Positions 3,616 to 51,879 of a stretch of 52,458 nt of DNA are shown piece by piece. A program made the position numbers and the translations under genes. This stretch comes from a virus (taxonomy: Duplodnaviria; Caudoviricetes). The notes below the pieces were generated by a model that had not been told where the DNA came from, ran no database searches, and worked only from the letters and a program-made list of their open reading frames with translations. Within the stretch, counting starts at the first letter, position 1. Every line of letters begins with the position of its first letter. The DNA lies in the IMG/VR virus record IMGVR_UViG_3300022689_000070, positions 1-52,458 of that record; one strand, written 5' to 3'.

Positions 3616-3634
3616 TCCTTTTAACCGGAGAACA

Positions 3635-4072
3635 GTGATGAAGTATATGTTTATAACCAACGTCGAATACCAACTTCTGGATCGCCCAATCATAGAGATC
3701 CTTGATATGCCACCCCTTGATGCTTACACGTTTACAAACGAAAAAGGGTTGCAAGGTGTTAGCACGACAGAAGCCCTAAGCAAGCAAACTATTAAAGCCC
3801 AGCACTTTGTTAACAGACTGGAGGGTCTGGATATTTGGGTGGGTTGTCATCCTCGCGTTGCTGATGCGTTACGCATTCAAGTCGAATGCTGGGGCATAAT
3901 GAATGAAGAGATAAATAAATTAAGCAGCGACTGCTACAAACTAAGAATAAAAAACCGTAAATTAAAAACAACAAAAAGGAACAACGATTTCTGGACGATA
4001 TTCAACCAATACGTCGAGGAAGTATTCACCAACCTTAACCACCAGATAGACGCGATGCCGGGAGTGCAGTGA
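3635..4072 (+). CDS. Hypothetical protein
   Basis: 145-aa ORF with GGAGAACAGTGATG start motif. Confidence 0.7.
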   Translation: MMKYMFITNVEYQLLDRPIIEILDMPPLDAYTFTNEKGLQGVSTTEALSKQTIKAQHFVNRLEGLDIWVGCHPRVADALRIQVECWGIMNEEINKLSSDCYKLRIKNRKLKTTKRNNDFWTIFNQYVEEVFTNLNHQIDAMPGVQ

Positions 4073-4257
4073 TGAAATCAGACCTAGAAGAACAGAAGCG
4101 CCAGATAGATAAAACCTACCAAGAGTACCTTTCGCAGCTGAATACGCTGCGCCTGAGAGGCTACGACTATTACCCAGACATTGATGGACCGTTTACGTGC
4201 GTACAGCTGATTGATAGCCAGATACGTCCTTACGGTGGCTTCAATGCCAAAGGGTGA
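4069..4257 (+). CDS. Small hypothetical protein
   Basis: 62 aa, GGAGTGCAGTGATG start motif. Confidence 0.65.
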   Translation: MMKSDLEEQKRQIDKTYQEYLSQLNTLRLRGYDYYPDIDGPFTCVQLIDSQIRPYGGFNAKG

Positions 4258-4489
4258 TTGGGCACGGGGCGACAAGTATTTTATAAAACATCCGACCGGC
4301 GCCACGATAAGCTGGGATGATAGCAAGGCATATGTTTTGTTATGGGTGGATAAAAAATCTTATCGTTTCCCGAACGCTACCATAGCCATCAAGGCTTTCG
4401 ATAAACTTAAGAAAAGACCGCACGACCAGACCGTGGAAGAATGGCTGGCTGATTACGAGGCGGCACTACAGGAGAACAGTGATGAGTGA
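4244..4489 (+). CDS. Hypothetical protein
   Basis: Likely start at ATG 4244 (MPKGDW) after GGTGG; fills the operon gap. Confidence 0.55.
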   Translation: MPKGDWARGDKYFIKHPTGATISWDDSKAYVLLWVDKKSYRFPNATIAIKAFDKLKKRPHDQTVEEWLADYEAALQENSDE

Positions 4490-4763
4490 TGAAGAAAGCT
4501 ACACAGCGAAAGACCTTATCAAGCACATGACTGAGGTGCAGGACGATATGATCAGCTGCTGCTTTAATCACAGTATCGACATAGAAGCCGCTCACGGGCT
4601 TAAACCTTACGACGTGCTGGTGCTGGCCCAGATGAGCATACTCGCCTTTTCTTACTACGCCGCAGAGGTAGTGGATGAACACACGCTAGTGACCATGTTG
4701 AAAAACTCAGCGGTTAAAGCAAAGGAGATACTTGACCATGGCGAAAATAAAACAGTCCACTAA
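4479..4763 (+). CDS. Hypothetical protein
   Basis: 94 aa, GGAGAACAGTGATG start motif. Confidence 0.7.
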   Translation: MMSDEESYTAKDLIKHMTEVQDDMISCCFNHSIDIEAAHGLKPYDVLVLAQMSILAFSYYAAEVVDEHTLVTMLKNSAVKAKEILDHGENKTVH

Positions 4764-5100
4764 GCATAAACAGTGGCTGCAGACCGTCGTTGAGTTCGCA
4801 GCGAAGCATGGGCCGGTGGTAAAAGGCCATGGCCGGGTCCAGATACATCACGTAGTGGGTCCGACGTATGTGCATAACAAGGTCCCAATCGGGCACTGGT
4901 TTTTATTGCCGTTGCCATTCGAGCTGCACGACGTGTCATCCAATCATCCGTGTAACGTCACTCACTTCCGTAAGCGCTTCACTGAAGAGCACGGGGAGCA
5001 ACGCATACTGTTTGAGTTGATGTGCGAAATCATACGCGCTGAGGGCGGCACGCTCCCGCCTGATGAAGCCCTGCAGGCAATACAGCAAACGAGGTACTGA
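4738..5100 (+). CDS. DUF968/Ref-like HNH-fold protein (Zn-binding cysteines degenerate)
   Basis: QIHHVVG..GHWFLLPL..LH..F...HG pattern typical of lambdoid nin-region proteins. Confidence 0.6.
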   Translation: MAKIKQSTKHKQWLQTVVEFAAKHGPVVKGHGRVQIHHVVGPTYVHNKVPIGHWFLLPLPFELHDVSSNHPCNVTHFRKRFTEEHGEQRILFELMCEIIRAEGGTLPPDEALQAIQQTRY

Positions 5101-5101
5101 T

Positions 5102-5542
5102 ATGCCGATATTAAACTACACTACCAGCGTAAAGGCAGAAAAAACGGTGAGTGAAATACAGAAAGCACTTGCTAAATCGGGCGCATCAAAAGTGATGTCC
5201 GAGTATGACGGCGAAGGGATATTGAAACACCTTTCATTCCAAATTGTCTGCAATAACATACCTGTTTTTTTCAGGCTTCCCGCACGTATAGATAACATCT
5301 ACGTCATCCTGCAGAACGATTCCGAGGTGCCCCGGAAATTAAAATCGCGTGAGCAAGCGAGCCGGGTAGCGTGGCGCATCATCAAGAACTGGATCGAGGC
5401 ACAGCTTGCGCTTGTTGAGGCAGAGCAGGCAGATATGGTAGAAGTCTTTTTGCCTTATGCACAGACTCATGGAGGCGACACGATATATCAGCTCGTCATG
5501 TCGAACCAACAAAAAATGTTAGGAGCACCAGATGGCAAGTAG
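5102..5542 (+). CDS. Conserved hypothetical phage protein
   Basis: MPILNYTT..EIQK.L..EQASRVAWRIIKNWIEAQLA pattern; GAGGT RBS before ATG 5102. Confidence 0.75.
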   Translation: MPILNYTTSVKAEKTVSEIQKALAKSGASKVMSEYDGEGILKHLSFQIVCNNIPVFFRLPARIDNIYVILQNDSEVPRKLKSREQASRVAWRIIKNWIEAQLALVEAEQADMVEVFLPYAQTHGGDTIYQLVMSNQQKMLGAPDGK

Positions 5543-6071
5543 AGACAGTGATGAGTACGGCACGCCACAAGGATTGTTCGATGTCCTGCACGATATGTTC
5601 AATTTTGAATTGGATGTCTGTGCGAGTTCAGTTAATCAGAAAGGTGTTGAGTACTGGACAAAGGAGGATAACTGCTTAACCAAGGACTGGCCCAAGGCCC
5701 CGGTGTTCATGAACCCGCCCTATTCGTCAGGTAATATAGGGAAGTTCATGGCAAAGGCCGTGGAGAGTTCCAAGACTGGTAGTCTGGTGGTGGCGCTGGT
5801 CAGGCAAGATCCATCCACAGCATGGTGGCAGTGTTGTGTTCACCCGCATGCAACCTACGTCGCCCAGTTTCGCAAGCGGTTACGGTTTGAGGGTCAGGCA
5901 GAAGGCGCAAATGACGCTTACAACTTCCCGGTGTGCTTAGTGATCTACGGCCCCAAACTTGCGGGACCTCCGACGACGCTATATCTTGACGAGCTTATCG
6001 ATACACTTTATTGGTGGCTCAGTGAAGGAGAGGCAGAAAGACATAGAGCAAGGCTTAAGGCGCTGGGCTGA
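5532..6071 (+). CDS. Phage N6-adenine DNA methyltransferase (Dam-like family)
   Basis: DEYGTP..F..LDVCAS..N..FMNPPYS motif set. Confidence 0.9.
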   Translation: MASRDSDEYGTPQGLFDVLHDMFNFELDVCASSVNQKGVEYWTKEDNCLTKDWPKAPVFMNPPYSSGNIGKFMAKAVESSKTGSLVVALVRQDPSTAWWQCCVHPHATYVAQFRKRLRFEGQAEGANDAYNFPVCLVIYGPKLAGPPTTLYLDELIDTLYWWLSEGEAERHRARLKALG

Positions 6072-6477
6072 GTGGGTTATTGCAAACCAAAAGCAGCTGC
6101 AGGTCCGGGCCGGGTATTCCGTCCCCGCCAGAACCGGGTGGCAATGCAGTAACTGCAAGAAGGAATACATCGAGCCTCCCCGGGACCTCAACAACCGACA
6201 CCAGAACAGATGCACCCGCTGCGGCTACGAGATTAAAGCCACCTTCATTGCCGGCGACTTTAATCACAATGACAAGATGGCGGAAGTCTACAACACCGGT
6301 ATTCAGATCATGCCGGTCGCTCAACGCACCGCTATTGTTTGGAAGTATCTCAGTCAGGAACCCCAGTCTAAGTTTGCCAAGAACCTCGGCGTCAGCACTC
6401 AGCACTTACAGCAGAATTTATCCCGTGCTTACTATTACTTGATGGGTTATCTCGACTGGAGAAAATATAACAAATAA
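6022..6477 (+). CDS. Antitermination Q-like / sigma70 region-4-like regulator with Zn ribbon
   Basis: LRRWAEW N-terminus, CxxC..CxxC, C-terminal HTH (FAKNLGVSTQHLQQNLSRA); last gene of the early-right operon; GTG start inferred. Confidence 0.6.
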   Translation: MKERQKDIEQGLRRWAEWVIANQKQLQVRAGYSVPARTGWQCSNCKKEYIEPPRDLNNRHQNRCTRCGYEIKATFIAGDFNHNDKMAEVYNTGIQIMPVAQRTAIVWKYLSQEPQSKFAKNLGVSTQHLQQNLSRAYYYLMGYLDWRKYNK

Positions 6478-6480
6478 GTG

Positions 6481-6509
6481 TTGAGGGGTGAGGCTTACTG
6501 CTCTACTAT
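6481..6509 (+). promoter_or_regulatory. Sigma70-like promoter in the pR'-like position
   Basis: TTGAGG (6481-6486), 17 bp spacer, TACTAT (6504-6509). Confidence 0.6.
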
Positions 6510-6514
6510 CAACG

Positions 6515-6590
6515 TGTCGATTGGTTATCGACGTCATCACTGTTCGCAGCGCCCCGGGTTGCTCAGCGGCTTCCCGGGGTTGCTGCACTT
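6515..6590 (+). ncRNA. Putative trans-acting antisense small RNA (seed UCAUCACUGUUC)
   Basis: Promoter upstream; hairpin GTCGAT/ATCGAC, unpaired TCATCACTGTTC (6534-6545), GC-rich hairpin 6546-6586; seed complementary to many gene starts. Confidence 0.65.
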
Positions 6591-6592
6591 AA

Positions 6593-7009
6593 TCACTTCA
6601 CTATCTTGAACACGCGTTTCACTCTTTTTCTTTTATGCGGGTTCTCAGTCACATCAACTATTGCCTTGGTCCAGCTATCCACGAACCGGTACCCGGCAAC
6701 AGCAACGTAATGGTTTGTCACGACCACGATGTAAGTTGACTTAAGGTCACGCTCCGGGGCCTGCAGCCACTGGTTAAAAGAGCAGTCACCCCATTCATAA
6801 TCCCAACGGTGACATTGCTTGACCTTGTAACCCAGCTCATGGATGACGCTGGTAAGCTCGTTGCAATACATGCCACGTATCTTTTTCTTTCCTGCATGCT
6901 TCAGCACCTGCTTGTAACTGCAGTTGGTCACGGCCATGATAGCCGTGGGTCCACAGAAGACCTCGGTGTCCTTGGGAAGCTTGGGCTTGTATAGTTTTGC
7001 TCTCATCAC
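6593..7009 (-). CDS. Papain-like/C39-like Cys-His-Asp peptidase-fold protein
   Basis: FCGPTAIMAVT ... YIVVVTNHYVAV...VDSW. Confidence 0.55.
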   Translation of the reverse strand: MMRAKLYKPKLPKDTEVFCGPTAIMAVTNCSYKQVLKHAGKKKIRGMYCNELTSVIHELGYKVKQCHRWDYEWGDCSFNQWLQAPERDLKSTYIVVVTNHYVAVAGYRFVDSWTKAIVDVTENPHKRKRVKRVFKIVK

Positions 7010-7254
7010 TGAGCCTCCTTCAGTATGGTTAATGCACCCTTGGTGATGCCGTGTTGGTTGCCGAAAGACCTGATGCGACGCACGGCCTTCTTCAGCGGGT
7101 AGTCGATGTCACGCAGGTAACGCGCATCGGATTTATTTATCTTGATCACCCGGACCGGGAAGTCTATCGATACACAAGAGATGTACTTGCGCCCCGCCTT
7201 GCTGATGACAACGCGGTGACCATTGTCGTTATGAAGTATTTGTACTTTCATCAC
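7006..7254 (-). CDS. Small basic hypothetical protein
   Basis: 82 aa, GGAGTGCAGTGATG start, coupled to 6593..7009. Confidence 0.7.
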   Translation of the reverse strand: MMKVQILHNDNGHRVVISKAGRKYISCVSIDFPVRVIKINKSDARYLRDIDYPLKKAVRRIRSFGNQHGITKGALTILKEAQ

Positions 7255-7284
7255 TGCACTCCAATTTATTTAAGATGAGGGATT

Positions 7285-7293
7285 ATTATATCA
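7285..7293 (-). promoter_or_regulatory. Extended -10 promoter element for the reverse cassette
   Basis: TGATATAAT (TGnTATAAT) on the minus strand about 30 nt upstream of the 7254 start. Confidence 0.5.
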
Positions 7294-7479
7294 AATGGGT
7301 TTTTGCCAAATTGCACGAAACCCTTGATATGACTCACTTTCCGGCCTGTAACCCGCATAAATACGTGGCCAAAAAAAAGCTTGACTCGATCTACATAGGG
7401 CAAAATGAAGCAATAATTGCGGGGTAGCACCTCTACAAGCTAGTATTGGCGCCATCGAAATTATTTTTCAGGGACTAAA

Positions 7480-33800: not shown

Positions 33801-36800
33801 GATGAGATGCGTGACATCTTCGATCGCCTGCTGGCCACCGAGGAAGAGATTGCTATCGCTCGTAGTAACCCGGCTTTCATGCAGATGCCTGATACAGCAA
33901 AGACTGCCGGCATGAGCGATGAAGAGAAGATTGAAATGCAGAAGCAGGACGAGCGTGCTAAAGATAAGGCCGAGTCCACCCTGTTAGCCAAACTGCTCAA
34001 GGAGCTGAAGCAGCGCAAGTCAAAGGAATGGAAGGCAGAGAAGGATCCTCTTATTCAGGAAGAGAAAGAGCGGCTGAAGGAAGAGCCTGTGTATCAGGTG
34101 TTGATTGATGCGGCCAACGAGCCAATGGACTACGACACCATCAAGGAGATCGTCGGTGATGATAAGAAGGTCATGGGCAAGTTCATTGGTAAGACGCAGA
34201 AAGACGGCGTCGACCCAGAGGTCTATGCAGAAGCTTACGGCTTCAAGTCAGTCCGTGACATGGTTAATCAGATTGCATCCGTCCAGACGCTAAATAAAGC
34301 GGCTGAGCAGGCAGCTGAGGAACGAATGATAGCCAAGTACGGCGACATCATGAATGACGGCACCATTGAGGCCGAAGCGAGAGAAGCTGTGCATAACGAA
34401 GAACAAGCAAAACTGCTATTGAAGCAAATACGCGCTATGGGCAGGAAGGCCAAGCGTGCCCCGATTAACAGGGACCAGCTAAAGGCCCGGGCAAAGGATG
34501 CAATTGGTTCCATGGCGTTCGGTGAGATTCGCCCTGACCGTTACTACAGAAACGAGATACGTCACGCGCAGAATGCTGCCAAGGCCACCAATCAGGAAGA
34601 GATACTCAAGCACAAAACCCTGCAGCTGTATAACCACTACCTGTTCAAGGAAGCGTCCGCTGCCCGGGAGCAGGCTGAGAAGCATCGCAAGTACATCAAG
34701 GATGTGCAGACCCGTGACTACTCACCAAACACGGTACACCCGGATTACATCCAGACGATGAAGATGATTGCGAACATGTATGAAGCTGTGAAAGGCCGCA
34801 GCAAATCAGCTCGCAAGAAAATGTTGTCCGATGTCATCAGCTGGTATCGCGCCCAGTCCATCGTTAATCAGGAAGATGGTGAGATTAACGACGAGTTCAT
34901 ACAAGTTCAGCTGCTGGACCCGAACCTGATTGAAGCGCTGGATGCAAAGCTTGCCGAAGAGAAAGGCGATGGCAACGCGTACATCGATTTCGAGTTGCCG
35001 TTCTACAAAGACATGACCACCGAAGAGCTGAAGGGTGTATACGAAATGCTTAAGCATCTTCGCTATGTTGGTGGTCAGATGGGTGATGCTAGTAAGGCGC
35101 AGTTCCAGAAAGAAAAGGAAAAGCTGATCAAGAGCGTCGACAAAAACGGTGGCAAGGATAAACAAATTCCTGACGAGCCGGGTCGTTTTGATTCCGCCTT
35201 CAACAAGACAAAAGGATTCTTTCTTGAGCTGGTAAACCTGCGTAACCTGATTCGCAAACTCGACGGCATGAAGGAAGACGGTCAGGCGTTCCAGAAAATA
35301 TTCATGGAAGTGCAGGCAGGTAACGATGCCAAACTATTACTGACCGACCAGATGGCGGAGATGTACAAAGAGGTGTTGTCGGATCTTAATAACGTCAACA
35401 TAAAGAAAACAGATAAGGTCACTATTATCAAAGAGAGTGGCGAAGAGTTTACTCTGTCAGCTGAAGGTCGACTCATGCTTGCGCTGTACTGGGGAACGGA
35501 ATCATCTCAGGAGGCCATCATGCAAGGTCATAAGGTGACTGAGCAGGACGTGCAGGACATGCTGTCGTTTATGACCGAGGATGAATTGGACCTTGTTAAC
35601 CGCATTTGGCAACTAAATGAAGCGCTATGGCCGCAGATGTCCGAGCTATCTAAGGACCTGTACGGCGTCTCCCCGGCCAAGGTTGAGCCGGTCCCTTATG
35701 AGATAAATGGCGTGCAGTTAACCGGTGGCCACATGCGTTTGTTTTATGGTCAGACAACAGCAGAGCTGCAGACCGAGGAGCAGCAGTTGGTTGCTTCATC
35801 ACCCCTGTCACAGACGAAAGCAGGCTCACTACATGAGCGCGTTGGCTCCGGTGGTAAGCGCGTCATGCTAGACAAGAGCAACATCATCCGTGCGCTGAGT
35901 GAAAACATTCACGCGATCTCCATGGGTCGCGCTACCAAGAATATTGCACGCATGGTCAACTCCCGTGACTTCAAGGATATGGTGGTGCAGAAGCATGGCA
36001 TGCCTTTCTACGAAACCCTGCTGAAGACGCTGGACGGTGTGCTGACTTACAAGACTGAGTACGAGTCACAACAGTTTCTGGCCACCCTGTCCAAGATGGT
36101 CCGCACCGCTGCCACCATGAAGCACTTGGCATTCTCTATTCGCAACACGGCCCAGCAGTTATCCGCATGGCCCATTGCTGCAGAAGAGGTTGGTACTGCT
36201 GCGTTACTGAGAGCGTATACAAATATCGCTCAGGACATGGGTAAGATAAAAGAGATTGACGCCCTCTCACCGTTCATGAGAAACCGCGCTAAACTGGTTA
36301 ACCGTGAAGCGCGTGAGATGATGGATAAGATCAGTGACAACCCGGCAGTTGCCGCCTTTAAGAAAGCTGGCTTCTTACCACAGACAATTATGGATTCATT
36401 GATTGCTTACCCGGTATGGACTGCTCGCTTTGAACAGGCGATGAACGAACACGGCAATCAGGCTAAGGCAATCATCGCAGCTGACCAAGCAGTAGCGGAG
36501 TCAGTTGGATCAGGCTCCGACCTCCACCTGTCAGCCATGTTTCAAGAGAAGCGCACCGAGTTCATCCGCATGTTCACTCTCATGGGTTCGTGGTTTAACG
36601 CTTACTTCAACCGCATATACCGCTCTGCGAACCGAGGCGATCGAGTAATTGACAAAGAATTGTTTCTGGCCGCAGGAACGACCCCGCTGATCTCTGGTGT
36701 ACTGGCCGCACTGTTGATAGCTGACATGCCTGACGAAGATGATGACGAGGGCTGGGCAGAATGGACGGCGAAACAATACGGTAGTTTCCTGATGGGCACC

Positions 36801-37094
36801 GCACCCATCCTGAGAGACATCGCTTCAGCAATGAAAGGCTTCTCTGCGAAGATGCCTGCTGCCACCGCTGCCGGCGCCCTGTACCGCATGCCGAAAGAGG
36901 TGGAAAGGTTTATATCAGGCGAGCAAGGCCTGTTTGAAACCGGTATCGATGTTGCCAAGGCTGTAACAACCATCGTGCCTGTAGCCGGGTCCGGCCAGAT
37001 TATCCGCATGGCTGAATACTGGATCTCCTACGAGGAAGGAAACGAAGGCGATTTCAATATGTTTCAGATGGCTTTGCAAGGAAAGACCCGATAG
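24867..37094 (+). CDS. Giant (4075 aa) polyvalent ejection protein with GNAT, ParB-like, HhH-like, nuclease-like and HExxH metallopeptidase modules
   Basis: Uninterrupted ORF in the gp16-like position; motifs RRGNG..LEKWYKKAGF, HEGRHR, VTVDLWVRR..QVQAALW, FIQEVQSK, STFLHESGH..HEKWARGFEAY. Confidence 0.85.
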   Translation: MAEDDYFYPDDEQQNRGIPVSVYNAAKLNPDKEAQSVKLARERGLPSDVVSRNYDEVKRNSVLEQFQKMGLADSSPKTNEWISEPDNAKIAYDDIDSLVQIEDTFKDTTSLWEDLGTAFTNFGDTTKLNLENTFLGAGVAAADMMIPDKEEFQTGLEGGFQSVMKRALGGLPLPQNFIKSMITAAESVGIFEEEDLLRLKDDYINLTLEEIQANEKEIQALTPEDLSMWQSGIRGGIQSVVEQAPGMAMSMITRNPSWMLTPMAATVYARSYGEARKEGYDENMAALYATLQAGTEWLTEKIPADKFLKIPGLQEGWKKTMNEVGSFFLTEQITEQVATFSQSLIDYGFELDEELAQAESIGDWIDIFGTRAAVTSIATLTGTAVQGGAAVGVGTITNKFTKKTGRDTVDTAKHLNEQERIDKLIGLFQTTAVKDRDPESLRSFAKKVSEDTQSQDVYIDANRVEELQEQGVILPKSIMDELEAAQESGDDIAIPASDFFTDVATSEELATQLRDHIKLSADGTFKNDFIRNDGYLNQLLKDAEADQETFDESQRIYNEIRDKLIATGRQGSFTSKYSAQIIPAYITRASKEYGVPVAKLYEDMNFDIVGPEGRPAAGTPSTQIEDLTVGETATFYDPKGEPVDFTVKAVSDQGGVIVEDENGEEILIGDEYSLASAASGDYVLETMEGKTVNSLSDEELDAGIVRTREKLQAKKEAGQSVAGMARELNALTIEARRRDVSRGTSGTTIMDQPPAYKEAKVFYEEARDVFLEALPEDAGFEDVMVMMDDFSPGYQNVLMQLQENDWLGFDYPAQAISALFSEDIEQYEISQGLKAALGRVVNGTAQLSQEEQVSLSQDEFIDFWKDWEQSTYEIPFADGMRAVMNNEINDGQNFAMIELGKWSDGIMLKSILSSQARRGNGQAGLDALTDMADKYGMNLYLQPEAFGTLEGKMTTKQLEKWYKKAGFIEQSNGIFKREPVATLMQGRATQALTYEEVPSRRKPRKTRKVYKLMRVRASHPGMYFPLYAKPEGGALTGFTAGKWFKAEVNKVRIGSKDLAHRPGLHGVNLPVFDQGKGTVKGQQRVWVEIEIPDINTKTQKESDNSELLKNGMRKGITDRLIDVNESYDYKTNPNASNDAGGWPIAGSMKINRVVPDSEIAQILKDAGLSKQVENSMTQIDEGKAEAYNQQQPVSLQQGEFDEYEGSDVVLSDRRANHLIEYFGDRRNSNAHMIDMAPEDFLELAPKYFDFDKDTEERIEAGKLKPTFGMLDEEELRNLKQPIYLLVKKIGDNKFKVLGHEGRHRMYALQDAGIRNVPVVLINYESTDVIGPNPVLEQQKGLLGDRTDTLTIPSEPVAINEDNRGQIMKRFGDTRRGPVLYQRPKYKVKKNSKGKYMGAPNWVKKPSDLAKIRKLMRELTKLGEDGRMWYEDSAATILKAANNDPVLAEKLIQLVAIYSPQNSIAPNMSQAIKAYNQWATGVPRDKFNVRAFGGVGKETLDDKAIAVLYDNTVWSGRKTNSFYLNLMHEIVQQVGESGLDQLALPADLRQKVDEVVTVDLWVRRALGYDNDMTSDDKGSGAYSFAENELTLIADEMGWKPHQVQAALWTGIKSRYEHPQVKADTIEESVKKGYSEYKNKKGKAKWSAPTSAENKRLHMELWRKHALALDPAVAREQVAAAKFSFSDALSAMVETITWEAIPAPELDTDIMKAPAILQAEFTEKARRLLLDENGNDQLAMLVGAPIAASEAGTGGFEGAISPNNITTIIPTKPVGTYSREEVSAYARAIQYIYRQKAVPWSRADANISFAKDYGVYKPGGKRAMRKFDSYEEAVAYAKGLSYEAEVRGGSNYRGVVVTFEEALSEQAEGDFYTQLQDVFGEYVGYTKTSDNEILIGNFRDENGIPFMMSDTEFTDAIGGLNSGVNYQIRESKEVGLEGDYGPEQDWVADPKGESLLAGEGLAGSPDLQAWLDNRWEAFGQLIEEYSGDSLQEKVTKLDAPVSQASEAQLAGEQEAPVTLNQSEVISLFQDLNEAPLNPMFVSGLHRIVEKKGQPKATGQQWIKLLEKSGGKPVEMDWIGFTSFFDKNKSYTKEEVLDFIESNGIDVETVYRAGGIEDVGTGEAYESQVEFSYGYEEFVPFEDTGYAEQVEDWRDYNVLEDESGEKNNYFMENYEGYEDEYYVPAETMAEAVDKFEATLNEEQKKELELHLKGRAEEELRERYNEEPDSYTNITAEANEEQFNIKVIWSQGEMEIYSIDLGGEGYFGGGFGEISRFDRVEIEGEVYSRLEQMGKIKTEKQIAEEMEAKARDVDGLPFNVMADDKYGISSWTTPGGDRYHETILTMPDQIGPFKPDTYHFTEEGGGTAVAWLRSDIRDNGTNYFIQEVQSKRAMEGRERGFIASEQKIKEAEQVMFELAKEANSIAAENDYFGYDTFAAFATDVMQDNQRLTWYEWMDTTDLEQKEIDAITDYFKQRVRVRDLREGDVPDFPFKKSDHWQLLTLKAAIRNATMMGADHVTWTPGTIQADRYSLRSQVNSIRITNMQPESDYSKIVVLSTERGEIRLAVTEDGTVTNSNRDQITTPQPLKSVVGVAVAEQIMEPVTPENSFLNKRHKKLGRPTGNYVEGKRIENIYEKDGNFYFDFEGKTSIPLIPPSADAKLDDIKRMVQDPAYAWIEYEKGFPSMRTEISEAFFRIANEQAAYDEAAKLREIKPEEMKVGGEGLINLYDNILPKLANKFIKKFKSKIEVFDTFLGDDGSKAVTAPMMEEAGYDKDNLDNPFKFISDVESEEVTLVVRKPDGTRYQSEFANREAAEEKAAQMFREIFSTKTLGFRITPEMKAAASEGFELFQDKTKGPRGKIDLDPVTGERVINLLAGSDLSTFLHESGHLFLEMEKVFARKYGVNKRQQAILDWLGAPNFDAIDPTTKAGVEMHEKWARGFEAYLREGKAPSLALRDAFSAFKRWLTYIYKSVRQLDVEVSDEMRDIFDRLLATEEEIAIARSNPAFMQMPDTAKTAGMSDEEKIEMQKQDERAKDKAESTLLAKLLKELKQRKSKEWKAEKDPLIQEEKERLKEEPVYQVLIDAANEPMDYDTIKEIVGDDKKVMGKFIGKTQKDGVDPEVYAEAYGFKSVRDMVNQIASVQTLNKAAEQAAEERMIAKYGDIMNDGTIEAEAREAVHNEEQAKLLLKQIRAMGRKAKRAPINRDQLKARAKDAIGSMAFGEIRPDRYYRNEIRHAQNAAKATNQEEILKHKTLQLYNHYLFKEASAAREQAEKHRKYIKDVQTRDYSPNTVHPDYIQTMKMIANMYEAVKGRSKSARKKMLSDVISWYRAQSIVNQEDGEINDEFIQVQLLDPNLIEALDAKLAEEKGDGNAYIDFELPFYKDMTTEELKGVYEMLKHLRYVGGQMGDASKAQFQKEKEKLIKSVDKNGGKDKQIPDEPGRFDSAFNKTKGFFLELVNLRNLIRKLDGMKEDGQAFQKIFMEVQAGNDAKLLLTDQMAEMYKEVLSDLNNVNIKKTDKVTIIKESGEEFTLSAEGRLMLALYWGTESSQEAIMQGHKVTEQDVQDMLSFMTEDELDLVNRIWQLNEALWPQMSELSKDLYGVSPAKVEPVPYEINGVQLTGGHMRLFYGQTTAELQTEEQQLVASSPLSQTKAGSLHERVGSGGKRVMLDKSNIIRALSENIHAISMGRATKNIARMVNSRDFKDMVVQKHGMPFYETLLKTLDGVLTYKTEYESQQFLATLSKMVRTAATMKHLAFSIRNTAQQLSAWPIAAEEVGTAALLRAYTNIAQDMGKIKEIDALSPFMRNRAKLVNREAREMMDKISDNPAVAAFKKAGFLPQTIMDSLIAYPVWTARFEQAMNEHGNQAKAIIAADQAVAESVGSGSDLHLSAMFQEKRTEFIRMFTLMGSWFNAYFNRIYRSANRGDRVIDKELFLAAGTTPLISGVLAALLIADMPDEDDDEGWAEWTAKQYGSFLMGTAPILRDIASAMKGFSAKMPAATAAGALYRMPKEVERFISGEQGLFETGIDVAKAVTTIVPVAGSGQIIRMAEYWISYEEGNEGDFNMFQMALQGKTR

Positions 37095-44424: not shown

Positions 44425-45333
44425 CTAGTATATTTCTTGGAACTTCGCATACCCCGGCATCGCTAAGTCACGAACGGGAATCTCATTTCTGTAGCCGTAA
44501 CCCGGCCACTCTCCACTTTCCTTGCAACGCGCATACTCAAGCATGGCGTTTTGGATCTGAATGGAACCTTGCCTGACCCACTGCGGATCAAGCTTATACA
44601 CCGCGCACTGGTAAGGCGGCTCCTTCTCAACCACGACAAAGAACATGCCGTTTTTAATATCCAGATTAAGGTCCTTGCTGGCAGCTCCGCCAGTGTAGAA
44701 GGCCTCCTGAATGTTGTAGTCGAACTTATGGCAGGACCTCTGGAAGCCACTGTAGGAAGCGTCATTGGTAGACTTTAAATCAACGATGCAGCTGTGAGCG
44801 TCGTTGTAATTGTCCATGCGAAACTTACACAGCTTTCCAGTGCCTTCGTACACATCACCGTCACCCCGGTCGATAAAGAAACCCGACGACTCGAAGTACC
44901 CGTCATCACAGAACACGCCTGCAAAAGGGTGATTCCTAACGCTCTCAGCCATCCTGTGAACCATGTCCCACTCCGAGACATTCCAGTAGTTGTCCGACTC
45001 GAAAGAACTCAGCACGGTGTAACCCATCTGCTCGCAAGTCTCTTTCCATATTTTTGCTTCCTTCGTGCGAAAGTCCGGGTACTTGGCCTGCTTGTACATG
45101 GCTTTGAATTTTTCAGGCTCGAACACCAAGCAGTGAAATGCGTGGCCAACCCGGAAGTCCCGGGTCTCTGGCCGTGGATGTAGGCGTCCATGCTGGAAGG
45201 TTAAAGGGGAGCGACGAAAATCCTTCAGGCCGCTGTTATTCATGCCCGGGGCTTTCCGGTATTCCTCGAAGTCCATATCAGGATAAAAGCCCAGCAGGCG
45301 GTCTTCTTTCTTTTCAGCTACCTCGTTCATCAC
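44425..45333 (-). CDS. RecE/exonuclease VIII-like PD-(D/E)xK nuclease (DUF3799)
   Basis: GHAFHCLVFEP, CKFRMD..IVDLKST, Y.IQEAFY, FVVVEKEPPY; adjacent to bet. Confidence 0.9.
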   Translation of the reverse strand: MMNEVAEKKEDRLLGFYPDMDFEEYRKAPGMNNSGLKDFRRSPLTFQHGRLHPRPETRDFRVGHAFHCLVFEPEKFKAMYKQAKYPDFRTKEAKIWKETCEQMGYTVLSSFESDNYWNVSEWDMVHRMAESVRNHPFAGVFCDDGYFESSGFFIDRGDGDVYEGTGKLCKFRMDNYNDAHSCIVDLKSTNDASYSGFQRSCHKFDYNIQEAFYTGGAASKDLNLDIKNGMFFVVVEKEPPYQCAVYKLDPQWVRQGSIQIQNAMLEYARCKESGEWPGYGYRNEIPVRDLAMPGYAKFQEIY

Positions 45334-45784
45334 TTAACCTACTTGAAAGCTGACCCGCCAACCACTGCACTTCTCTTTCGACGTAACAAAAATCCCGGTA
45401 AACCTCATCACCGAACCAAATCTCAGTCTTGTATGCAGGAGACAGATCACCAAGGTGGGCGCAATCAAAGCCTAACCACCAAACATCATTGTTAGCTGCA
45501 TCACATTCTTCGTGACAAATGCCCTTGGAGGGATCGCCGCTTTCATCACATAAACCCGAAAAAGTAAGACCACCGTGAATGTTCACGTCCACATCGTCAT
45601 AATCCTTTTTATAATACGGGTGCCCTTGGGGGACTCCAACGTAGCCACATAATGCCCCTGACCCTCCACGGACAATCAAGCAATCCAGCCCCGTGTCCTT
45701 GTCGACCCAGTGAGCCTTGTCTGGCTCCTTCTTCCAAGCGCCTTCACCCCAGTCACTTTTGTCTATCGTGTTCCAAGTCTTCAT
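45314..45784 (-). CDS. Conserved hypothetical phage protein
   Basis: LCGYVGVP..HGGLTF..WWLGFDCAH motif. Confidence 0.8.
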   Translation of the reverse strand: MKTWNTIDKSDWGEGAWKKEPDKAHWVDKDTGLDCLIVRGGSGALCGYVGVPQGHPYYKKDYDDVDVNIHGGLTFSGLCDESGDPSKGICHEECDAANNDVWWLGFDCAHLGDLSPAYKTEIWFGDEVYRDFCYVEREVQWLAGQLSSRLSDERGS

Positions 45785-45906
45785 GGCTCCTGCACCTCCA
45801 CAAAAAGAAAAAGGTAAAGCGCCACGAACGGGCGCGTAACGGGTGGAAATTGGTGTAAATATCTGCGCCTCATAGCTTCATGCAGCAGGTGGTTATCTTT
45901 TCTCAT
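45781..45906 (-). CDS. Small hypothetical protein (MRKDNHLL...)
   Basis: GGAGGACAGTGATG start motif at 45904-45917 defines the start inside the track ORF. Confidence 0.55.
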   Translation of the reverse strand: MRKDNHLLHEAMRRRYLHQFPPVTRPFVALYLFLFVEVQEP

Positions 45907-45919
45907 CACTGTCCTCCGA

Positions 45920-46135
45920 TTAACTAACGCAGGTAACATCGTTTTCAATAAGGTCCGTAATACGCAGACCCTCTTTGATGCCCTCGTCTTGGTAAATCTT
46001 CTTCCCCTCTGCGTGGGCGTCATGATAGTTGGCGTGGCGAGAAACTTCTTGCCACTCGTATTTTCCGCTATTCAGTTTGTTGTCTGGGTGCGGCGGTTCA
46101 ACGCACACAAACCTTTCTAAAATAAAATACATCAC
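45920..46135 (-). CDS. Small hypothetical protein
   Basis: AGGAGAACAGTGATG start motif. Confidence 0.7.
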   Translation of the reverse strand: MMYFILERFVCVEPPHPDNKLNSGKYEWQEVSRHANYHDAHAEGKKIYQDEGIKEGLRITDLIENDVTCVS

Positions 46136-46156
46136 TGTTCTCCTATTGCTTGAGTG

Positions 46157-46189: not shown

Positions 46190-46567
46190 CTATATTTCGC
46201 CGTCCAGAGACAGCACTCGCTTTTTGTCCTGCAGCTGCTCCAGCCATTTCACCTGCGTCTGGATCTCGGTGACGGCATTGTCAACATCCCACTCGAGATC
46301 ACGCAGACGCTGACGTCGGTCTTCCACTGCCTCACGCACCAGCCGATCCTTGATGATTTCAAAGCCGTAGGAATCGCGCTGACTCAACACCTCGATGTTG
46401 GGCAAGGTGCCACGACGCACGTATTTGTAGGCCTGTTTCACAGCTGATGCTTTGGCGCCATACTGCTCCACTTTGCCTATCCGCGATCCATCGACAGCGT
46501 GCCGCTGGACCTCCCACGCTTTGACTCCATTATTGAAATGCACGGTCACTAATAAAATTGGTCTCAC
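46190..46567 (-). CDS. Hypothetical protein with C-terminal coiled coil
   Basis: AGGAGAAGAACAGTG start. Confidence 0.7.
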   Translation of the reverse strand: MRPILLVTVHFNNGVKAWEVQRHAVDGSRIGKVEQYGAKASAVKQAYKYVRRGTLPNIEVLSQRDSYGFEIIKDRLVREAVEDRRQRLRDLEWDVDNAVTEIQTQVKWLEQLQDKKRVLSLDGEI

Positions 46568-46597
46568 TGTTCTTCTCCTAAGTTAAATCATAGTAGT

Positions 46598-46675: not shown

Positions 46676-46693
46676 TTATTGGCATGGACCCGA

Positions 46694-47896
46694 TCACGCC
46701 ACTTTATCCAGCAGCTTGCCGGCCTTGCGCTCAAGGTCCAGACGTTCATCCTGTCTGCCCTTGCTACGCGCATGTGCTGTGATTCCTTGCACGAATTGCC
46801 AGACGGACTTCGGCTTGTCACCTTCTTCCTCGACAACGCAGTTAATCACTTCACGGACCTCTTTCTTGTTGAAGCCGCGATTACGCAGGAATGACTCCCG
46901 GTCATCGTCGTTGTAGGCCACGACAGCTTCCTTGGCTCGCTGTACGCCCTGTATTAAGGCCGCATCATTCGACTGGATGAAAGACTGCAGTGCCGGTCTG
47001 GCGGACTCCAGAAAGCGACGTGGTGCATTCTTGGAGTGGGTCAGGCGGATCTCCTGATACCCTTCCACGCCCCAGAGCATACGGTTGGCGCACGAGGCGC
47101 GGAAGTAAAAACAGGCTATGCCGAATGAGCGGTTGCCAACCTCGGAGTTCCAGACGTAGAAACCGCGGTACACGATGTCGTCTTCCAGCTCGCCCTGTTT
47201 GTTACGGAACGTGCCCACCTTTATCGGATGGGTGTGGTCCACGAGGAACAAGAACACATCCCGGTCACTGGCAAACAACGTCGTGGTCTGCTTGGTGATA
47301 GGCGCCTGCGTGTCATAGATCATGCTGTTACTATTCAGCAGGCCCGGGACCGTCCAGCAAGTATCACCGGCACCGTTGCCAGCCAGATTCCTGACCGCAT
47401 CCACCACGGCGTGGTCATAGATACGACCGTAATCAGGACCGGTAGCAGCACGCAGCTCCGTATTGCCGTTGCGCGTGGCATACACCTTGATGGCCTCAGA
47501 CCTGACTTCACTGATGCCCCACTGCAGGTTAATGCCTGCGATTGTGCCCGGGAGTGTCCGCAGGTACTTGGCCGGCGCTTTCACCAGCTGGCATATCTGT
47601 CCAAACGAGTAGTGGTTTGGATGGGTTACGAAGTCACCCTGCTCACCCGGGATAATGAGATCCAGATTCTCCGGGTCATCATTCTGGGCACTCACCTTGA
47701 TGTCGCGCACGTCGACTATCTGGTTGAACGAGTTGTCAGCAGCGTCTTTACAGAACGTATGCAGGCTGTCCAAGTCCAGAAACTTCTGGTCATCTGGACG
47801 GTGAAACCACTGGGAACCGATAGCGTGACTCCAGCCACCGGCATCTGCGTTGACGCCATGTTGCGTCGGGGTTATATCAATTACTTCACTCATCAC
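46694..47896 (-). CDS. DUF932-family protein
   Basis: QWFHRPDDQKF..RAATGPDYGRIYD..LFASDRDVFLFL..RGFYVWNSEVG..CANR. Confidence 0.85.
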   Translation of the reverse strand: MMSEVIDITPTQHGVNADAGGWSHAIGSQWFHRPDDQKFLDLDSLHTFCKDAADNSFNQIVDVRDIKVSAQNDDPENLDLIIPGEQGDFVTHPNHYSFGQICQLVKAPAKYLRTLPGTIAGINLQWGISEVRSEAIKVYATRNGNTELRAATGPDYGRIYDHAVVDAVRNLAGNGAGDTCWTVPGLLNSNSMIYDTQAPITKQTTTLFASDRDVFLFLVDHTHPIKVGTFRNKQGELEDDIVYRGFYVWNSEVGNRSFGIACFYFRASCANRMLWGVEGYQEIRLTHSKNAPRRFLESARPALQSFIQSNDAALIQGVQRAKEAVVAYNDDDRESFLRNRGFNKKEVREVINCVVEEEGDKPKSVWQFVQGITAHARSKGRQDERLDLERKAGKLLDKVA

Positions 47897-47912
47897 TGTT
47901 TCTCCTTGACGC

Positions 47913-48414: not shown

Positions 48415-48671
48415 CACGCCACCTCTTCTTGGTTTGAGTTGGTGAACTGCCAGAAGTCACAGCTACCAATACCACCGGTATAGTAGGCCCGGTCAGACAG
48501 CGCCTGATCCAAATCTTCCTCATCCAGCTTGCCTTCCCAGTGTTCTTTGAACACCTCGATAAAAGCTTCTTTCACGTAGCCCGGCAGGGGCGGATAGAAG
48601 TTTACCGAGAGGTGGGTGTTCAGGGCCTGCTCGAGACCCTGAAATTCTACGAATGATTGAATGTCTTTCAT
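48414..48671 (-). CDS. Hypothetical protein
   Basis: 85 aa, GGAGG RBS. Confidence 0.7.
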   Translation of the reverse strand: MKDIQSFVEFQGLEQALNTHLSVNFYPPLPGYVKEAFIEVFKEHWEGKLDEEDLDQALSDRAYYTGGIGSCDFWQFTNSNQEEVA

Positions 48672-49054
48672 GACACTGCCTCCAGTTCTTTGTAGCCAGA
48701 GCTTTCGCCGTAGACAGCGAGATGCTGTTCAACGGTGGTGTACTTCCAAGTGTGGCCGTTGGTAGCCCACTGTGGTGGATATGAGTTCAAGTAGGCCTCG
48801 TATGGAGCGTCCAGACTGGTCAGCTCAGCAATGCGCCAGCCGGTACCAGTAGAGTGCGGTGCGCTGGTCTTGTAGTTTCCGGCCAAAGTAATGCCGCCAA
48901 GGTCCGACTGGAAGGAAACCACTCTTTTTCCGTCCCGGTCGGTGTAGAACCCATAGGTACCGGCCTTCGAGATGAAGACACGGAACCCCTTGGACAGAAG
49001 CTTGGATGCAAGCTCCTGTATTTTCTGTCGCTTATAATCAATCTTACTCATCAC
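48668..49054 (-). CDS. Hypothetical protein
   Basis: 128 aa, AGGGGGCAGTGATG start. Confidence 0.7.
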   Translation of the reverse strand: MMSKIDYKRQKIQELASKLLSKGFRVFISKAGTYGFYTDRDGKRVVSFQSDLGGITLAGNYKTSAPHSTGTGWRIAELTSLDAPYEAYLNSYPPQWATNGHTWKYTTVEQHLAVYGESSGYKELEAVS

Positions 49055-49060
49055 TGCCCC

Positions 49061-49372
49061 CTATTTCTTTTTCGCCGTAACAACGACGCGGTTAACTTCA
49101 GACTGCTTGGTGTTAGCTGAGACGATCTGGCGAGACGCGCCCAGCTTCTCAGCGATACCTTTCCAGTTGACCACTTTCTTGAAGCCCTGAGTGAACACGA
49201 CACGGAAGAGCTTACCTTCCGCTGGGTCACCACCCGTCAGGTTGAAGAGCAGGCCTTCGGCCCCCTTCAGCTGCTTTTTCAGGTCATCAATATCAGCGCG
49301 TAATTGGCCGATGTGATCTGCGATCGCTTCCGGGGAAGCTTCTACTAATTTTGCATTTTTAACTTTCATCAC
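49061..49372 (-). CDS. Hypothetical phage protein (coiled coil plus small beta domain)
   Basis: 103 aa, AGGAGAACAGTGATG start. Confidence 0.75.
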   Translation of the reverse strand: MMKVKNAKLVEASPEAIADHIGQLRADIDDLKKQLKGAEGLLFNLTGGDPAEGKLFRVVFTQGFKKVVNWKGIAEKLGASRQIVSANTKQSEVNRVVVTAKKK

Positions 49373-49386
49373 TGTTCTCCTGTTGG

Positions 49387-49812: not shown

Positions 49813-49843
49813 ATTCTCCTAGCGCAAAAAAGTATGGTAGCAA

Positions 49844-50431: not shown

Positions 50432-50511
50432 GGATATACTCCCATCAAAGTAGCCCCTGAATCAGCGCGGGGCCTTCCGCTACCACTTGCGGTAAACACA
50501 AGATGGGGAGA

Positions 50512-50582
50512 ATAATACACCCCTGAATTTCAATTGCAAGGGTTTTTAATCCCTTGACACAGAATCCACATAGGAGGATATT
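50512..50582. promoter_or_regulatory. Divergent early promoters (PL/PR-like)
   Basis: Minus strand TTGCAA-16-TATTAT; plus strand TTGACA-17-GATATT; located where the two early operons diverge. Confidence 0.55.
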
Positions 50583-50589
50583 CGCGGTT

Positions 50590-50784
50590 ATGGAAAGTAA
50601 ATTATTGGAAGAGACGTTGGACCTACTGAGCAGGGCATCGGAGCAGCGACCAACCATCGCAGAGAACACCGGCCTGAAAGCAGACTGGCTCAAAGCATTA
50701 TCCCGGGGGGACTTCAAGGACCCGGGCGTAGTAAAAATTGAGACACTTAACCGGTACCTCAAAAAGAAAGGTAAAACGATTTAA
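50590..50784 (+). CDS. Cro-like HTH DNA-binding protein
   Basis: IAENTGLKADWLKALSRG..DPGVVKIETL; AGGAGG RBS; first rightward gene. Confidence 0.75.
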   Translation: MESKLLEETLDLLSRASEQRPTIAENTGLKADWLKALSRGDFKDPGVVKIETLNRYLKKKGKTI

Positions 50785-50791
50785 CTAGAGT

Positions 50792-50833
50792 GGCCCGGGG
50801 ACCCCGCTTTCCTTTGCCCCGGGTCTTTTTTTT
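50792..50833 (+). terminator. Rho-independent terminator after the cro-like gene (tR1-like position)
   Basis: GGCCCGGGG...CCCCGGGTC followed by T8. Confidence 0.7.
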
Positions 50834-50843
50834 ACAGGAGACA

Positions 50844-51125
50844 GTGATGAAGATTGAAAAAGACATACCCATCCCATCAACTCAGGCTTCTAACATGGCC
50901 GACACGGAGCTGTACGACACAATGAAACAGCTCGAGGTGAGGGACTCGTTCGCTATCAAGCTGGACGATGAACTTCGTGTTGACCACCCGGGCGTTAATC
51001 GCGTCAAGGCCGGGACTATACGCATGACCGTGGCAAGGTATGGGGAAAGACTAAAACGCCGTCATACGACCAGAATCATCCGTCAGGACGGAAAAACAGA
51101 GCTGCGTGTTTGGAGGACGAAATGA
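50844..51125 (+). CDS. Small putative DNA-binding phage protein
   Basis: MKIEKDIPIP..LEVRDSF..LRVWRTK pattern; AGGAGACAGTGATG start. Confidence 0.75.
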   Translation: MMKIEKDIPIPSTQASNMADTELYDTMKQLEVRDSFAIKLDDELRVDHPGVNRVKAGTIRMTVARYGERLKRRHTTRIIRQDGKTELRVWRTK

Positions 51126-51640
51126 ATAAACAAGAGATGCAAAAGAAAATAGATGATTTCAAAGCCTTTATTGAAAACGAAAAAGTTGCCAATGAAATCC
51201 AGATAGAAAGGCTCCAAGAGATGCTTGAAGATTGCTTTTGTGAGGAATGGGGTGACCCTGAGACTCATCGGACTAATGACACAGTTTTGAGTGGTGATGG
51301 CATTATTTATAGCACTTCAAGTACTTCGCTTCGTCCATACTGGAAGCGTGGACGTACAGGCACAAAAGAATACCTAAAAGCCTACGACAAAGCCGAGATA
51401 GCCACTGCCATTATCAAGCGATACCGGAAACATATCGGTGCGGATGAGTGTGATTGGAGTAATTCTATTATAAGCAAGTTTTGCTACGCATATGACTGGA
51501 GGTATCAAAAGTTTGATGTAATAGGTCATACCTTTTATAAAAACCCAAACGTTATCTACTGGTCAAAATATATTGAATTTGAAGACCTCCCATCTATCGT
51601 CCAAGAAGCCTATAACACGTTATTGGAGTGTGATGTATGA
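51122..51640 (+). CDS. Hypothetical protein
   Basis: GGAGG RBS before ATG 51122. Confidence 0.7.
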   Translation: MNKQEMQKKIDDFKAFIENEKVANEIQIERLQEMLEDCFCEEWGDPETHRTNDTVLSGDGIIYSTSSTSLRPYWKRGRTGTKEYLKAYDKAEIATAIIKRYRKHIGADECDWSNSIISKFCYAYDWRYQKFDVIGHTFYKNPNVIYWSKYIEFEDLPSIVQEAYNTLLECDV

Positions 51641-51879
51641 AAGCAAATGACTTAATTAATCCAAAATGGATAGAGGACGAGCAATCAGGGTGTAAATGGC
51701 TTAATGAAGGATTAACAGTACGTGACCATATTGCTATTCAGGCAATGCAAGGGATTATTTCTATTTATGATGCCAGAGACCTTCAAAACCAAAAAGACCC
51801 TGAATGGATAGCAATGCAGTCTTATCGACTAGCCGATGCCATGATTACCGAGTCCAACAAGGAGAATAGTGATGGGTGA
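51637..51879 (+). CDS. Conserved small phage protein
   Basis: GLTVRDHIAIQAMQG..SYRLADAM motif common in phages. Confidence 0.8.
   Translation: MKANDLINPKWIEDEQSGCKWLNEGLTVRDHIAIQAMQGIISIYDARDLQNQKDPEWIAMQSYRLADAMITESNKENSDG

Follow-up and report, generated by a model that had tools for sequence, protein, structure and literature searches.

A repeated sequence anchored to the start codon marks early genes of a 52-kb phage genome and may serve as a common translational operator

The window analyzed here is the whole of IMG/VR virus record IMGVR_UViG_3300022689_000070, a phage genome of 52,458 bp in which eleven early genes begin with the same layout: GGAG, one to three bases, CAGTG, the ATG start codon and an A. 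This motif is strongly enriched at gene starts, is anchored to the AUG, is restricted to the early class, prefers starts that are not coupled to an upstream gene and has an orphan copy in non-coding DNA. Its 8-mer core, CAGTGATG, was found 17 times in the window, compared with 2.23 ± 1.64 times (maximum 6) in 100 shuffled sequences. Eleven of these copies end exactly in the ATG of a gene, at 3638, 4072, 4482 and 50847 on the plus strand and at 7006, 7251, 45906, 46132, 47893, 49051 and 49369 on the minus strand, with GGAG (once GGGGG) lying 1–3 nt upstream of CAGTG. An earlier note, made from the letters alone, had listed these eleven sites, all of which are present, and had put the expectation for a random 8-mer at 1.6, which is right in order of magnitude when set beside the shuffles. 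It had also placed one copy inside the Dam methyltransferase gene at 5546 (codons 5–8) and one at 11627, internal to a gene, both correctly; the remaining copies, at 6535(−), 33709(−), 43310(−) and 50020(+), were not in its list.

We curated 62 gene starts by hand (36 early and 26 late), using a simple codon model and inspection of the Shine-Dalgarno (SD) sequence. CAGTG occupied positions −5 to −1 at 11 of them, against 0.074 expected from the position-specific base frequencies at −5 to −1 of the other 51 starts, which give P(CAGTG) = 0.0012 (binomial tail 3.5e-21); the runner-up spacer occurred twice. The enrichment claimed earlier thus survives control for SD and start-codon composition, which cannot explain the motif. 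CAGTG was present at none of 672 GGAG-N5-9-ATG sites that open reading frames (ORFs) of at least 60 codons in 86 loci chosen without regard to the motif, and GTG occupied positions −3 to −1 at 9 of the 672 SD-N-ATG sites of this type, against 6.5 expected, indicating no general preference. Chance and base composition are therefore ruled out as the source of the motif by the shuffles, by the start model and by the 672 comparison sites, and the observation is real and strong. The 15-base pattern GGAGNNCAGTGATGA, present in 6 copies in this 52-kb phage, reached no more than 2 copies per genome in 401 genomes of one bacterial family, 53 of which had a match; this family was picked because one of its records, titled Enterobacter, held a 17-mer match.

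The anchor of the motif is the ATG, not the SD sequence. CAGTG adjoins the ATG in 11 of 11 exact sites, all of them co-oriented with the gene; each site overlaps or abuts the AUG, as RegA targets do. Between CAGTG and GGAG stand anywhere from 1 to 3 nt, with linkers that read AA, TG, GA, CT, A, AAA and GG. Since the junction of CAGTG with ATG is fixed while the linker changes in both length and bases, it is the AUG and its neighboring bases that are constrained. Conservation besides the 8-mer is seen at A in position −14 (9 of 11), in GGAG and at A in position +4 (10 of 11), and no information content was detected upstream of −14 across the eleven sites. An automated ORF listing puts the start at the in-frame GTG 3 nt before the motif ATG; GGAG is 6–8 nt from the motif ATG but 3–5 nt from that GTG. 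The block is kept but displaced in two of the variant sites, whose starts are at 46567 and 48671. These two variants and those at 51872, 45330 and 49809 are as the earlier note described them; the one at 49809 shares only two of the five spacer bases.

By class, 11 of the 36 early starts and none of the 26 late starts carry the motif (Fisher p = 0.0016), and the absence from structural and lysis starts reported earlier holds for every curated late start, from TerS at 7480 to 41879. The genome bears an exact 99-nt direct repeat at its two ends (1–99 and 52360–52458), which makes for a circular or permuted map. Of the two early operons, the rightward one begins near 50,590–50,850, passes the window end and resumes at 1 to finish at 6477, and the leftward one descends from 50,431 to about 42,470; a two-gene unit lies on the minus strand at 7251–6593. 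The late operon, which ends at 42,277, opens with TerS (7480, GP3_package) and holds TerL, the portal, a polyvalent-type protein of 4075 aa and the lysis region. Family searches of the early-region products returned RecT, a PDDEXK exonuclease, two HNH endonucleases, Dam, DUF1064 and DUF932 proteins and a replication initiator with HTH_36 and DnaD_N domains, along with many small ORFs without a family. The starts of RecT, the replication initiator, Dam and the HNH genes lack the exact motif, and no Pfam family could be assigned to ten of the eleven motif genes, the exception being the DUF932 gene.

Motif genes follow a gap in 7 of 10 cases, whereas 17 of 23 other early genes overlap the gene upstream (Mann-Whitney p = 0.009). 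Two of them (50847 and 3638) are preceded by terminator-like hairpins, and the 50847 gene heads a chain of genes overlapping by 4–8 nt: three overlapping genes follow up to the window end (51122, 51637 and 51872), with seven more starts, from 412 to 2793, beyond the terminal repeat. Coupling of stop and start was rejected as an explanation, because the TGA of the motif is the upstream stop in just two of the eleven sites, 4072 and 7006, each with a gap of −1, exactly as had been counted before. Paralogy of the motif genes was likewise rejected, as their second codons and the sequence beyond +5 differ and they share no protein family, a comparison that did not include an all-against-all BLAST.

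We tentatively favor the reading that the motif is an operator at the mRNA level, through which a trans-acting factor would co-ordinate, probably by shut-off, the translation of independently initiated early cistrons and of the genes coupled to them. On the evidence of the genome sequence, the motif would be a phage-specific and selectively maintained start-associated sequence, A-NN-GGAG-N1-3-CAGUG-AUG-A, and the cistrons so marked are early, non-structural and mostly self-initiating, in both divergent early operons and in the two-gene unit. A factor recognizing CAGUGAUGA in these mRNAs, on which the motif would act as a common operator, would occlude positions −9 to +4 and thereby co-ordinate, most probably switch off, translation of the motif cistrons; the effect would extend to downstream genes that are translationally coupled to them. 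The logic would be that of T4 RegA or RegB in silencing early messages. Candidates for such a factor are a phage protein without a recognized family and an antisense element at 6534–6545. We count in favor of an operator the extra copies that lie within the ribosome footprint, namely the 8-mer in Dam codons 5–8 and AGTGATG directly after the start codons of early genes 26, 755 and 4482; AGTGATG as a whole occurs 37 times against 7.7 expected.

Several results weigh against a dedicated operator. A Pfam scan of 50 ORFs, 42 of them from the early regions, found no RNA-binding repressor or RNase family, RegA, RegB and CsrA included, and sequence searches against PDB (four proteins) and ESM Atlas (two proteins) gave no informative family. 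The RegA-like operator proposed earlier accordingly keeps its AUG anchoring and its early restriction, but no such protein was found among the scanned ORFs, nor is the site A+U-rich. Self-folding of the start region, examined as a possible distinguishing feature and set aside, is indistinguishable for motif genes and all other genes (mean −4.97 and −4.9 kcal/mol; Mann-Whitney p = 0.44). Pairs of sites share 17–18 identical bases (4061 with 7249, and 4469 with 49365), which shows copying, a process that by itself could disseminate a good ribosome-binding site. Because the motif itself sets which sites count as 'exact', the invariance of CAGTG is in part ascertainment. No close relative of the phage was found in the collections searched. 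Finally, in a second phage, G011, the comparable block GGAGAWAGTGA is anchored to the SD sequence while the ATG floats by −1 to +2, and thus resembles an extended SD rather than an AUG operator.

The main rival account, which we regard as possible though doubtful, is that the motif is a copied ribosome-binding module, strong and sufficient by itself (SD, fixed spacer, in-frame GUG-AUG in tandem and A at +4), that needs no trans factor. It would have spread by short-homology recombination, or through new genes arising behind duplicated start regions, and would owe its uniformity to shared ancestry and to the usual selection for efficient initiation. The 3' tail of 16S rRNA has adjacent stretches complementary to GGAG and to GUGA(U). 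Sub-families of sites do share identical 17–18-mers (GGAGTGCAGTGATGAAA twice and ACAGGAGAACAGTGATGA twice), the motif is located where a stand-alone ribosome-binding site is needed, the phage encodes RecT and a PDDEXK exonuclease, and other phages do likewise with unrelated sequences (five copies in L193, four in L135, four or five in L035 and eight in G011). A copied module does not explain, however, why late genes starting after gaps never carry the motif (0 of 26), or why the linker beside CAGTG varies when CAGTG does not. There is no general preference for CAGTG or GTG before ATG, the module leaves no role for the SD-less orphan copy or for the copies inside coding starts, and GUGAU, if paired with rRNA, would hide part of the AUG.

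The start regions of other phages bear on both of these accounts. Megablast of two pieces of 10–12 kb against phage records gave no match, and related-locus scans of viral contigs returned nothing for the DUF932 protein, searched as a single protein, or for the 137-aa motif protein at 7006. The closest relative of the DUF932 protein in a search of 5.8 billion proteins was 59% identical. A portal scan yielded 6 loci at 33–51% identity, and five portal-related records were not enriched: four lacked the 8-mer and one had 4 copies, against 3 for the reversed control. An alignment of DUF932 proteins covered 80 viral loci at 44–54% identity, none of which had more than one GGAG-linked CAGTG and in which the 8-mer reached at most 4 copies in 21 kb; a homologue in the fetched loci was found for only 5 of the 36 early proteins. 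At this long range, the only one available, the motif is not retained in orthologous genes, as DUF932 starts differ in nearly every phage. Separately, AACTACGGAG before the DUF932 start is common to many DUF932-bearing loci.

Longer forms of the motif gave mostly single matches elsewhere, at about the number estimated for chance. The 15-mer scan of viral contigs returned at least 117 stretches, with two matches each in L082 and L044 and single matches elsewhere among the matches listed; in the whole records behind five of the 15-mer loci the 8-mer was present 3–11 times, for the most part away from starts. The 18-mer scan of viral contigs returned 7 stretches, two of them in L145, and the 17-mer scan of genome contigs at least 120, none with more than one GGAG-linked copy among the matches listed. 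In a tally of about 220 loci the window is extreme, its top spacer occurring 10 times against at most 5 elsewhere, and a spacer repeated at least four times was seen in 5 loci, from 4 phages. In G011 (locus L184, 24206–28453) GGAGAWAGTGA occurs 8 times, against none in the control, and all eight blocks precede ATG-initiated ORFs of 62–396 codons in two divergent early operons. Its block and the motif of the window have GGAGA...AGTGA, and also GGAG-N3-GUGA, in common; tblastn of the window phage against G011 gave no significant match besides DUF932, and hence no shared regulator gene. GGAGTT(A/T)AAAAACATG occurs 5 times in L193 and GGAGGTTTCCATG 4 times in L135, while L035 has its own start word, repeated 4–5 times. 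The DUF932 orthologues of the window, of G011/L184 and of L193 each bear the repeated motif of their own genome, which indicates that the motif belongs to the genome and is not inherited with the gene.

The copy of the motif that stands apart from any gene start provides the most concrete candidate for a regulator. The rightward operon and the two-gene unit converge on 115 nt, within which the minus strand at 6534–6545 reads GAACAGTGATGA, so that the plus strand there is a perfect 12-nt complement of the consensus; by arithmetic, a 12-mer match in about 115 nt has a chance of about 1e-5. The copy would open a 39-codon minus-strand ORF (6537–6418), which we rejected as a gene because it scores non-coding (−0.195 per codon, against about +0.2 for accepted small genes). 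The complement on the plus strand, UCAUCACUGUUC, is predicted to form the unpaired linker that joins hairpin 2 to a G+C-rich hairpin of 13 bp; its P(unpaired) is 0.80–0.90 in three sequence contexts, whereas the minus-strand copy of the motif reaches about 0.52. In the predicted fold this architecture is the layout of a small RNA (sRNA) seed. Elsewhere, every extended antisense match made wholly of Watson-Crick pairs faces a motif site located at a gene start or shortly after it; the one at 6534–6545 alone does not. Duplexes predicted for the 19-nt linker reach −15 to −21 kcal/mol at the eleven motif sites, against a mean of −9 at the other 51 starts, a difference that arises partly by construction.

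A specific form of the operator reading, nested within it and in our estimate unlikely, follows from this layout: a single phage RNA, the plus-strand transcript of 6478–6600 at the structured 3' end of the rightward early operon, would pair through its seed UCAUCACUGUUC with positions −9 to +4 of the motif-bearing starts, across the SD-AUG spacer and the start codon, block binding of the 30S subunit and silence the early operons by way of coupling. Being the last-transcribed element of a rightward operon of about 8 kb, 6478–6600 would act as a timer that ends early-gene translation. The non-coding score of the opposite-strand ORF, a region that folds far better than shuffles (z = −4.5), a seed that is accessible in the predicted structure and the strength of the duplexes all speak for such an RNA, as does the single reverse-oriented copy of the start-associated sequence (SAS) that lies off gene starts in four of the cluster K mycobacteriophages described (Anaya, Adephagia, Angelica and CrimD). 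By contrast, no promoter-like site was predicted upstream of 6478–6600 and no U-tract after its last hairpin, and Rfam and BLAST searches of 6380–6700 gave no family and no homologue. A relic of a lost minus-strand gene start, or a protein-binding decoy, explains the copy equally well; in G011, whose motif is analogous, no antisense copy of the 8-mer stands apart as an orphan; and pairing spans 9–12 nt depending on the linker, only about 9 nt at the sites with TG, CT or GG. The sRNA that the earlier note placed at about 6515 therefore fits in its architecture, with a perfect complement, a folded non-coding setting and a seed predicted to be largely (80–90%) unpaired, although promoter-like site, U-tract, Rfam family and homologue were all looked for and not found.

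That the motif consists of recombination joints, short conserved boundaries at which co-infecting relatives would exchange cassettes as proposed for mosaic phage genomes, we consider very unlikely. The motif does stand at the boundaries of small accessory genes without known function, RecT and an exonuclease are encoded, and the identical 17–18-mers form sub-families; yet no other multi-copy record appeared among the loci matched by the 15-mer (at least 117), the 18-mer (7) or the 17-mer (at least 120), or among the 401 genomes with their two copies at most. Only 5 of 36 early proteins have a homologue in the fetched loci, 8–15 nt is short for annealing-based exchange, and joints need neither a strict ATG register nor an A at +4. 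No relative sharing the motif was found from which the exchange proposed in the earlier note could be judged, and the DUF932 orthologues carry different, genome-specific start regions. Least likely of all is an asymmetric repressor site acting on DNA to block elongation through the early operons, like the stoperators of cluster A mycobacteriophages: the site is indeed asymmetric, multi-copy, confined to early regions and co-oriented with transcription at 11 of 11 starts, but its fixed ATG register and its association with SD spacing point to translation, no candidate DNA-binding repressor is linked to it, and the SAS authors draw the same contrast with stoperators.

Among described systems, the operator that we propose most resembles the SAS of cluster K mycobacteriophages. 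According to two reports (Pope et al. 2011, PMC3203893; Kiselev et al. 2025, PMC12699233), SAS are 13-bp asymmetric repeats, present in 11–19 copies per genome, 3–7 bp before mostly ATG starts of non-structural genes of different families only, with one odd copy per genome off gene starts; their function was left open, the authors suggesting binding by a host or phage RNA or protein. By these accounts the two elements have much in common, both being short, asymmetric, multi-copy, of a single orientation, near the starts of non-structural genes of different families, with the SD core inside them and a strong association with ATG. Copy numbers are comparable (11–19 for SAS; 11 exact sites and about 4 variants here), each has an odd copy off the starts, and our sites too lie no more than a few nucleotides from the starts, co-oriented with them, at 11 of 36 early genes and at none of the 26 late ones. 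There are also differences. The SAS sequence GGGATAGGAGCCC, with up to 2 mismatches, occurs once in the window, at 20850(−) and off the starts, and 55 of 100 shuffles do as well. The SAS block surrounds the SD sequence and ends 3–7 bp before the start, whereas the invariant block here is located between the SD and the start, the ATG being part of it. About half of SAS have a 17-bp inverted repeat, named ESAS, upstream, and none was seen at our eleven sites; and conservation across relatives has been demonstrated for SAS, whereas for the window no close relative was found to compare. The host of the present phage is probably not an actinobacterium.

Two phage T4 systems and one Citrobacter phage offer further comparisons. 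RegA represses about 30 early mRNAs from sites that overlap or abut the AUG and so competes with the 30S subunit (PMC3014915); the AUG anchoring and the early restriction seen here fit that logic, but RegA sites are A+U-rich and poorly conserved, whereas our 8-mer is invariant with 4 G/C of 8, and no RegA-like protein was found among the scanned ORFs. The endoribonuclease RegB, with S1, acts at GG*AGRAYARAA in early start regions (PMC3014915), an extended motif that, like ours, begins with the SD sequence GGAG and belongs to early and not late starts. Its first nine positions, GGAGRAYAR, are matched in 5 of the 11 exact sites and in one variant, with 8 matches in the window against 3.1 expected. 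The last two positions are TG here instead of AA, however, 6 of the 11 sites depart from the pattern, the anchor is the ATG and not GGAG, and the same scan gave no RegB family match. In Citrobacter phage Mordin a 26-bp repeat precedes 8 hypothetical genes (PMC4611695), which, with G011, L193 and L135, makes a set of genome-specific repeats that end in the SD sequence or in SD plus spacer before several small genes without known function in one genome arm. The Mordin repeat is upstream of and includes the SD, and its sequence is unlike ours; the G011 block is SD-anchored, and the L193 and L135 sequences also differ from that of the window. We found no description of a CAGTGATG-type start motif in literature searches that were not designed to find a motif by its sequence.

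SAS have been known since 2011, still lack a mechanism and have been described almost only in actinobacteriophages. The window provides a very clean second SAS-like case with an unrelated sequence and another position, between the SD and the ATG with the ATG included; here the rule is clear (early, mostly self-starting cistrons) and a candidate trans element, the orphan complementary copy, is at hand. Because several unrelated, uncultured phages have their own stereotyped starts, and because the motif before DUF932 differs by genome, genome-specific barcoding of early translation starts may be a wider and overlooked layer of phage gene control. If the antisense version of the operator is true, it would amount to an RNA-based timer for global shut-off of early genes and would suggest the same role for the single reverse-oriented SAS copies of mycobacteriophages.

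The individual sites on the plus strand are as follows. At 3627..3641 the exact layout GGAGAA-CAGTG-ATG-A opens a 144-aa ORF of no known family after an 81-nt gap. That gap contains a Y-shaped hairpin followed by a U-run (3563–3625, +; −34.2 kcal/mol, z = −2.9), the inner stem of which, CAUCAC/GUGAUG, pairs an anti-motif with a decoy of the 3' half of the motif. GGAGTG-CAGTG-ATG-A at 4061..4075 precedes a 61-aa ORF and its TGA is the stop of the upstream gene, while GGAGAA-CAGTG-ATG at 4471..4491 is immediately followed by a second AGTGATG and opens a 93-aa ORF. With a 1-nt linker, GGAGA-CAGTG-ATG-A at 50836..50850 belongs to the first cistron after a terminator-like site (hairpin and T8) at 50793–50833. 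The variant at 51861..51875, GGAGAA-TAGTG-ATG-G (C to T), opens a 94-aa ORF. Inside the Dam ORF, the exact 8-mer at 5546..5553 is preceded by AGAGA and read in frame as D-S-D-E (codons 5–8; positions +15 to +22, which lie in a ribosome footprint); its own ATG is out of frame with Dam, and that frame scores non-coding.

The minus strand holds the remaining sites. GGAGGCT-CAGTG-ATG-A at 7003..7018, with TGA as the upstream stop, opens a 137-aa ORF that has a weak phrog_3754 match and falls in a viral hypothetical family in ESM Atlas, and GGAGTG-CAGTG-ATG-A at 7248..7262 opens an 81-aa ORF, the first of the two-gene unit, with a promoter-like site upstream at 7309–7282. A 41-aa ORF of weak coding score follows GGAGGA-CAGTG-ATG-A at 45903..45917, and a 70-aa ORF follows GGAGAA-CAGTG-ATG-T at 46129..46143, the sole site without A at +4. 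The DUF932/phrog_1362 protein (399 aa) starts from GGAGAAA-CAGTG-ATG-A, with a 3-nt linker, at 47890..47905; the site at 49048..49062 has GGGGG replacing GGAG before a 127-aa ORF, and that at 49366..49380 reads GGAGAA-CAGTG-ATG-A before a 102-aa ORF. Among the variants, 46562..46578 has GGAG-AAGAA-CAGTG-AGA, in which the GTG of CAGTG is the start codon of a 125-aa ORF, 7 nt after GGAG; 48668..48683 has GGAGG-CAGTG-TC-ATG-A, with two bases between CAGTG and the ATG of an 85-aa ORF; and 45327..45341 has AGGTTA-AGTG-ATG-A (C to A) at the PDDEXK exonuclease gene. The orphan 12-nt copy at 6534..6545 lacks GGAG and is intergenic between convergent operons, inside the structured region 6478..6600, for which folding predicts three hairpins whichever strand is read (z = −4.5 and −4.7). 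At 43312 an alternative start was set aside in view of the weak scores of both overlapping ORFs there, and the ORF at 43391 looks like a zinc-ribbon protein.

Some further features of the genome were recorded. The 99-nt terminal repeat includes the start region and first codons of gene 26, so that the record is probably a circularly closed assembly rather than one with true terminal repeats. Extending into this repeat, a tRNA-like gene of about 92–97 nt at 52271–52367 (+) scores 47.8 bits with the Rfam tRNA model and has CCA at its end; ARAGORN gives it a four-letter 'ttaa' anticodon and cannot assign it, and one possibility is a tRNA of the long-arm type that has an unusual anticodon loop or carries an insertion. 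The 4075-aa late ORF, 24867–37094 (+), carries LPD22 at its N terminus together with a DUF7178 domain; by Pfam it is no RNA polymerase but a large protein of polyvalent type. The last ORF of the rightward operon, 5959–6477 (+), has several possible starts, the longest form overlapping Dam by 113 nt, and shows weak similarity to sigma-70 region 4 (Pfam 0.003; PDB SigF 0.022), on the strength of which it may be a late-gene activator. At the other end of this operon, a promoter-like TTGACA-17-GATATT (within 50554–50833, +) ends 7 nt before the ATG of a 64-aa ORF of good coding score, 50590–50784, for which a leaderless mRNA is therefore predicted. This ORF is followed by the hairpin and T8 terminator-like site just before the first motif gene, an arrangement that suggests antitermination or read-through control of the rightward operon.

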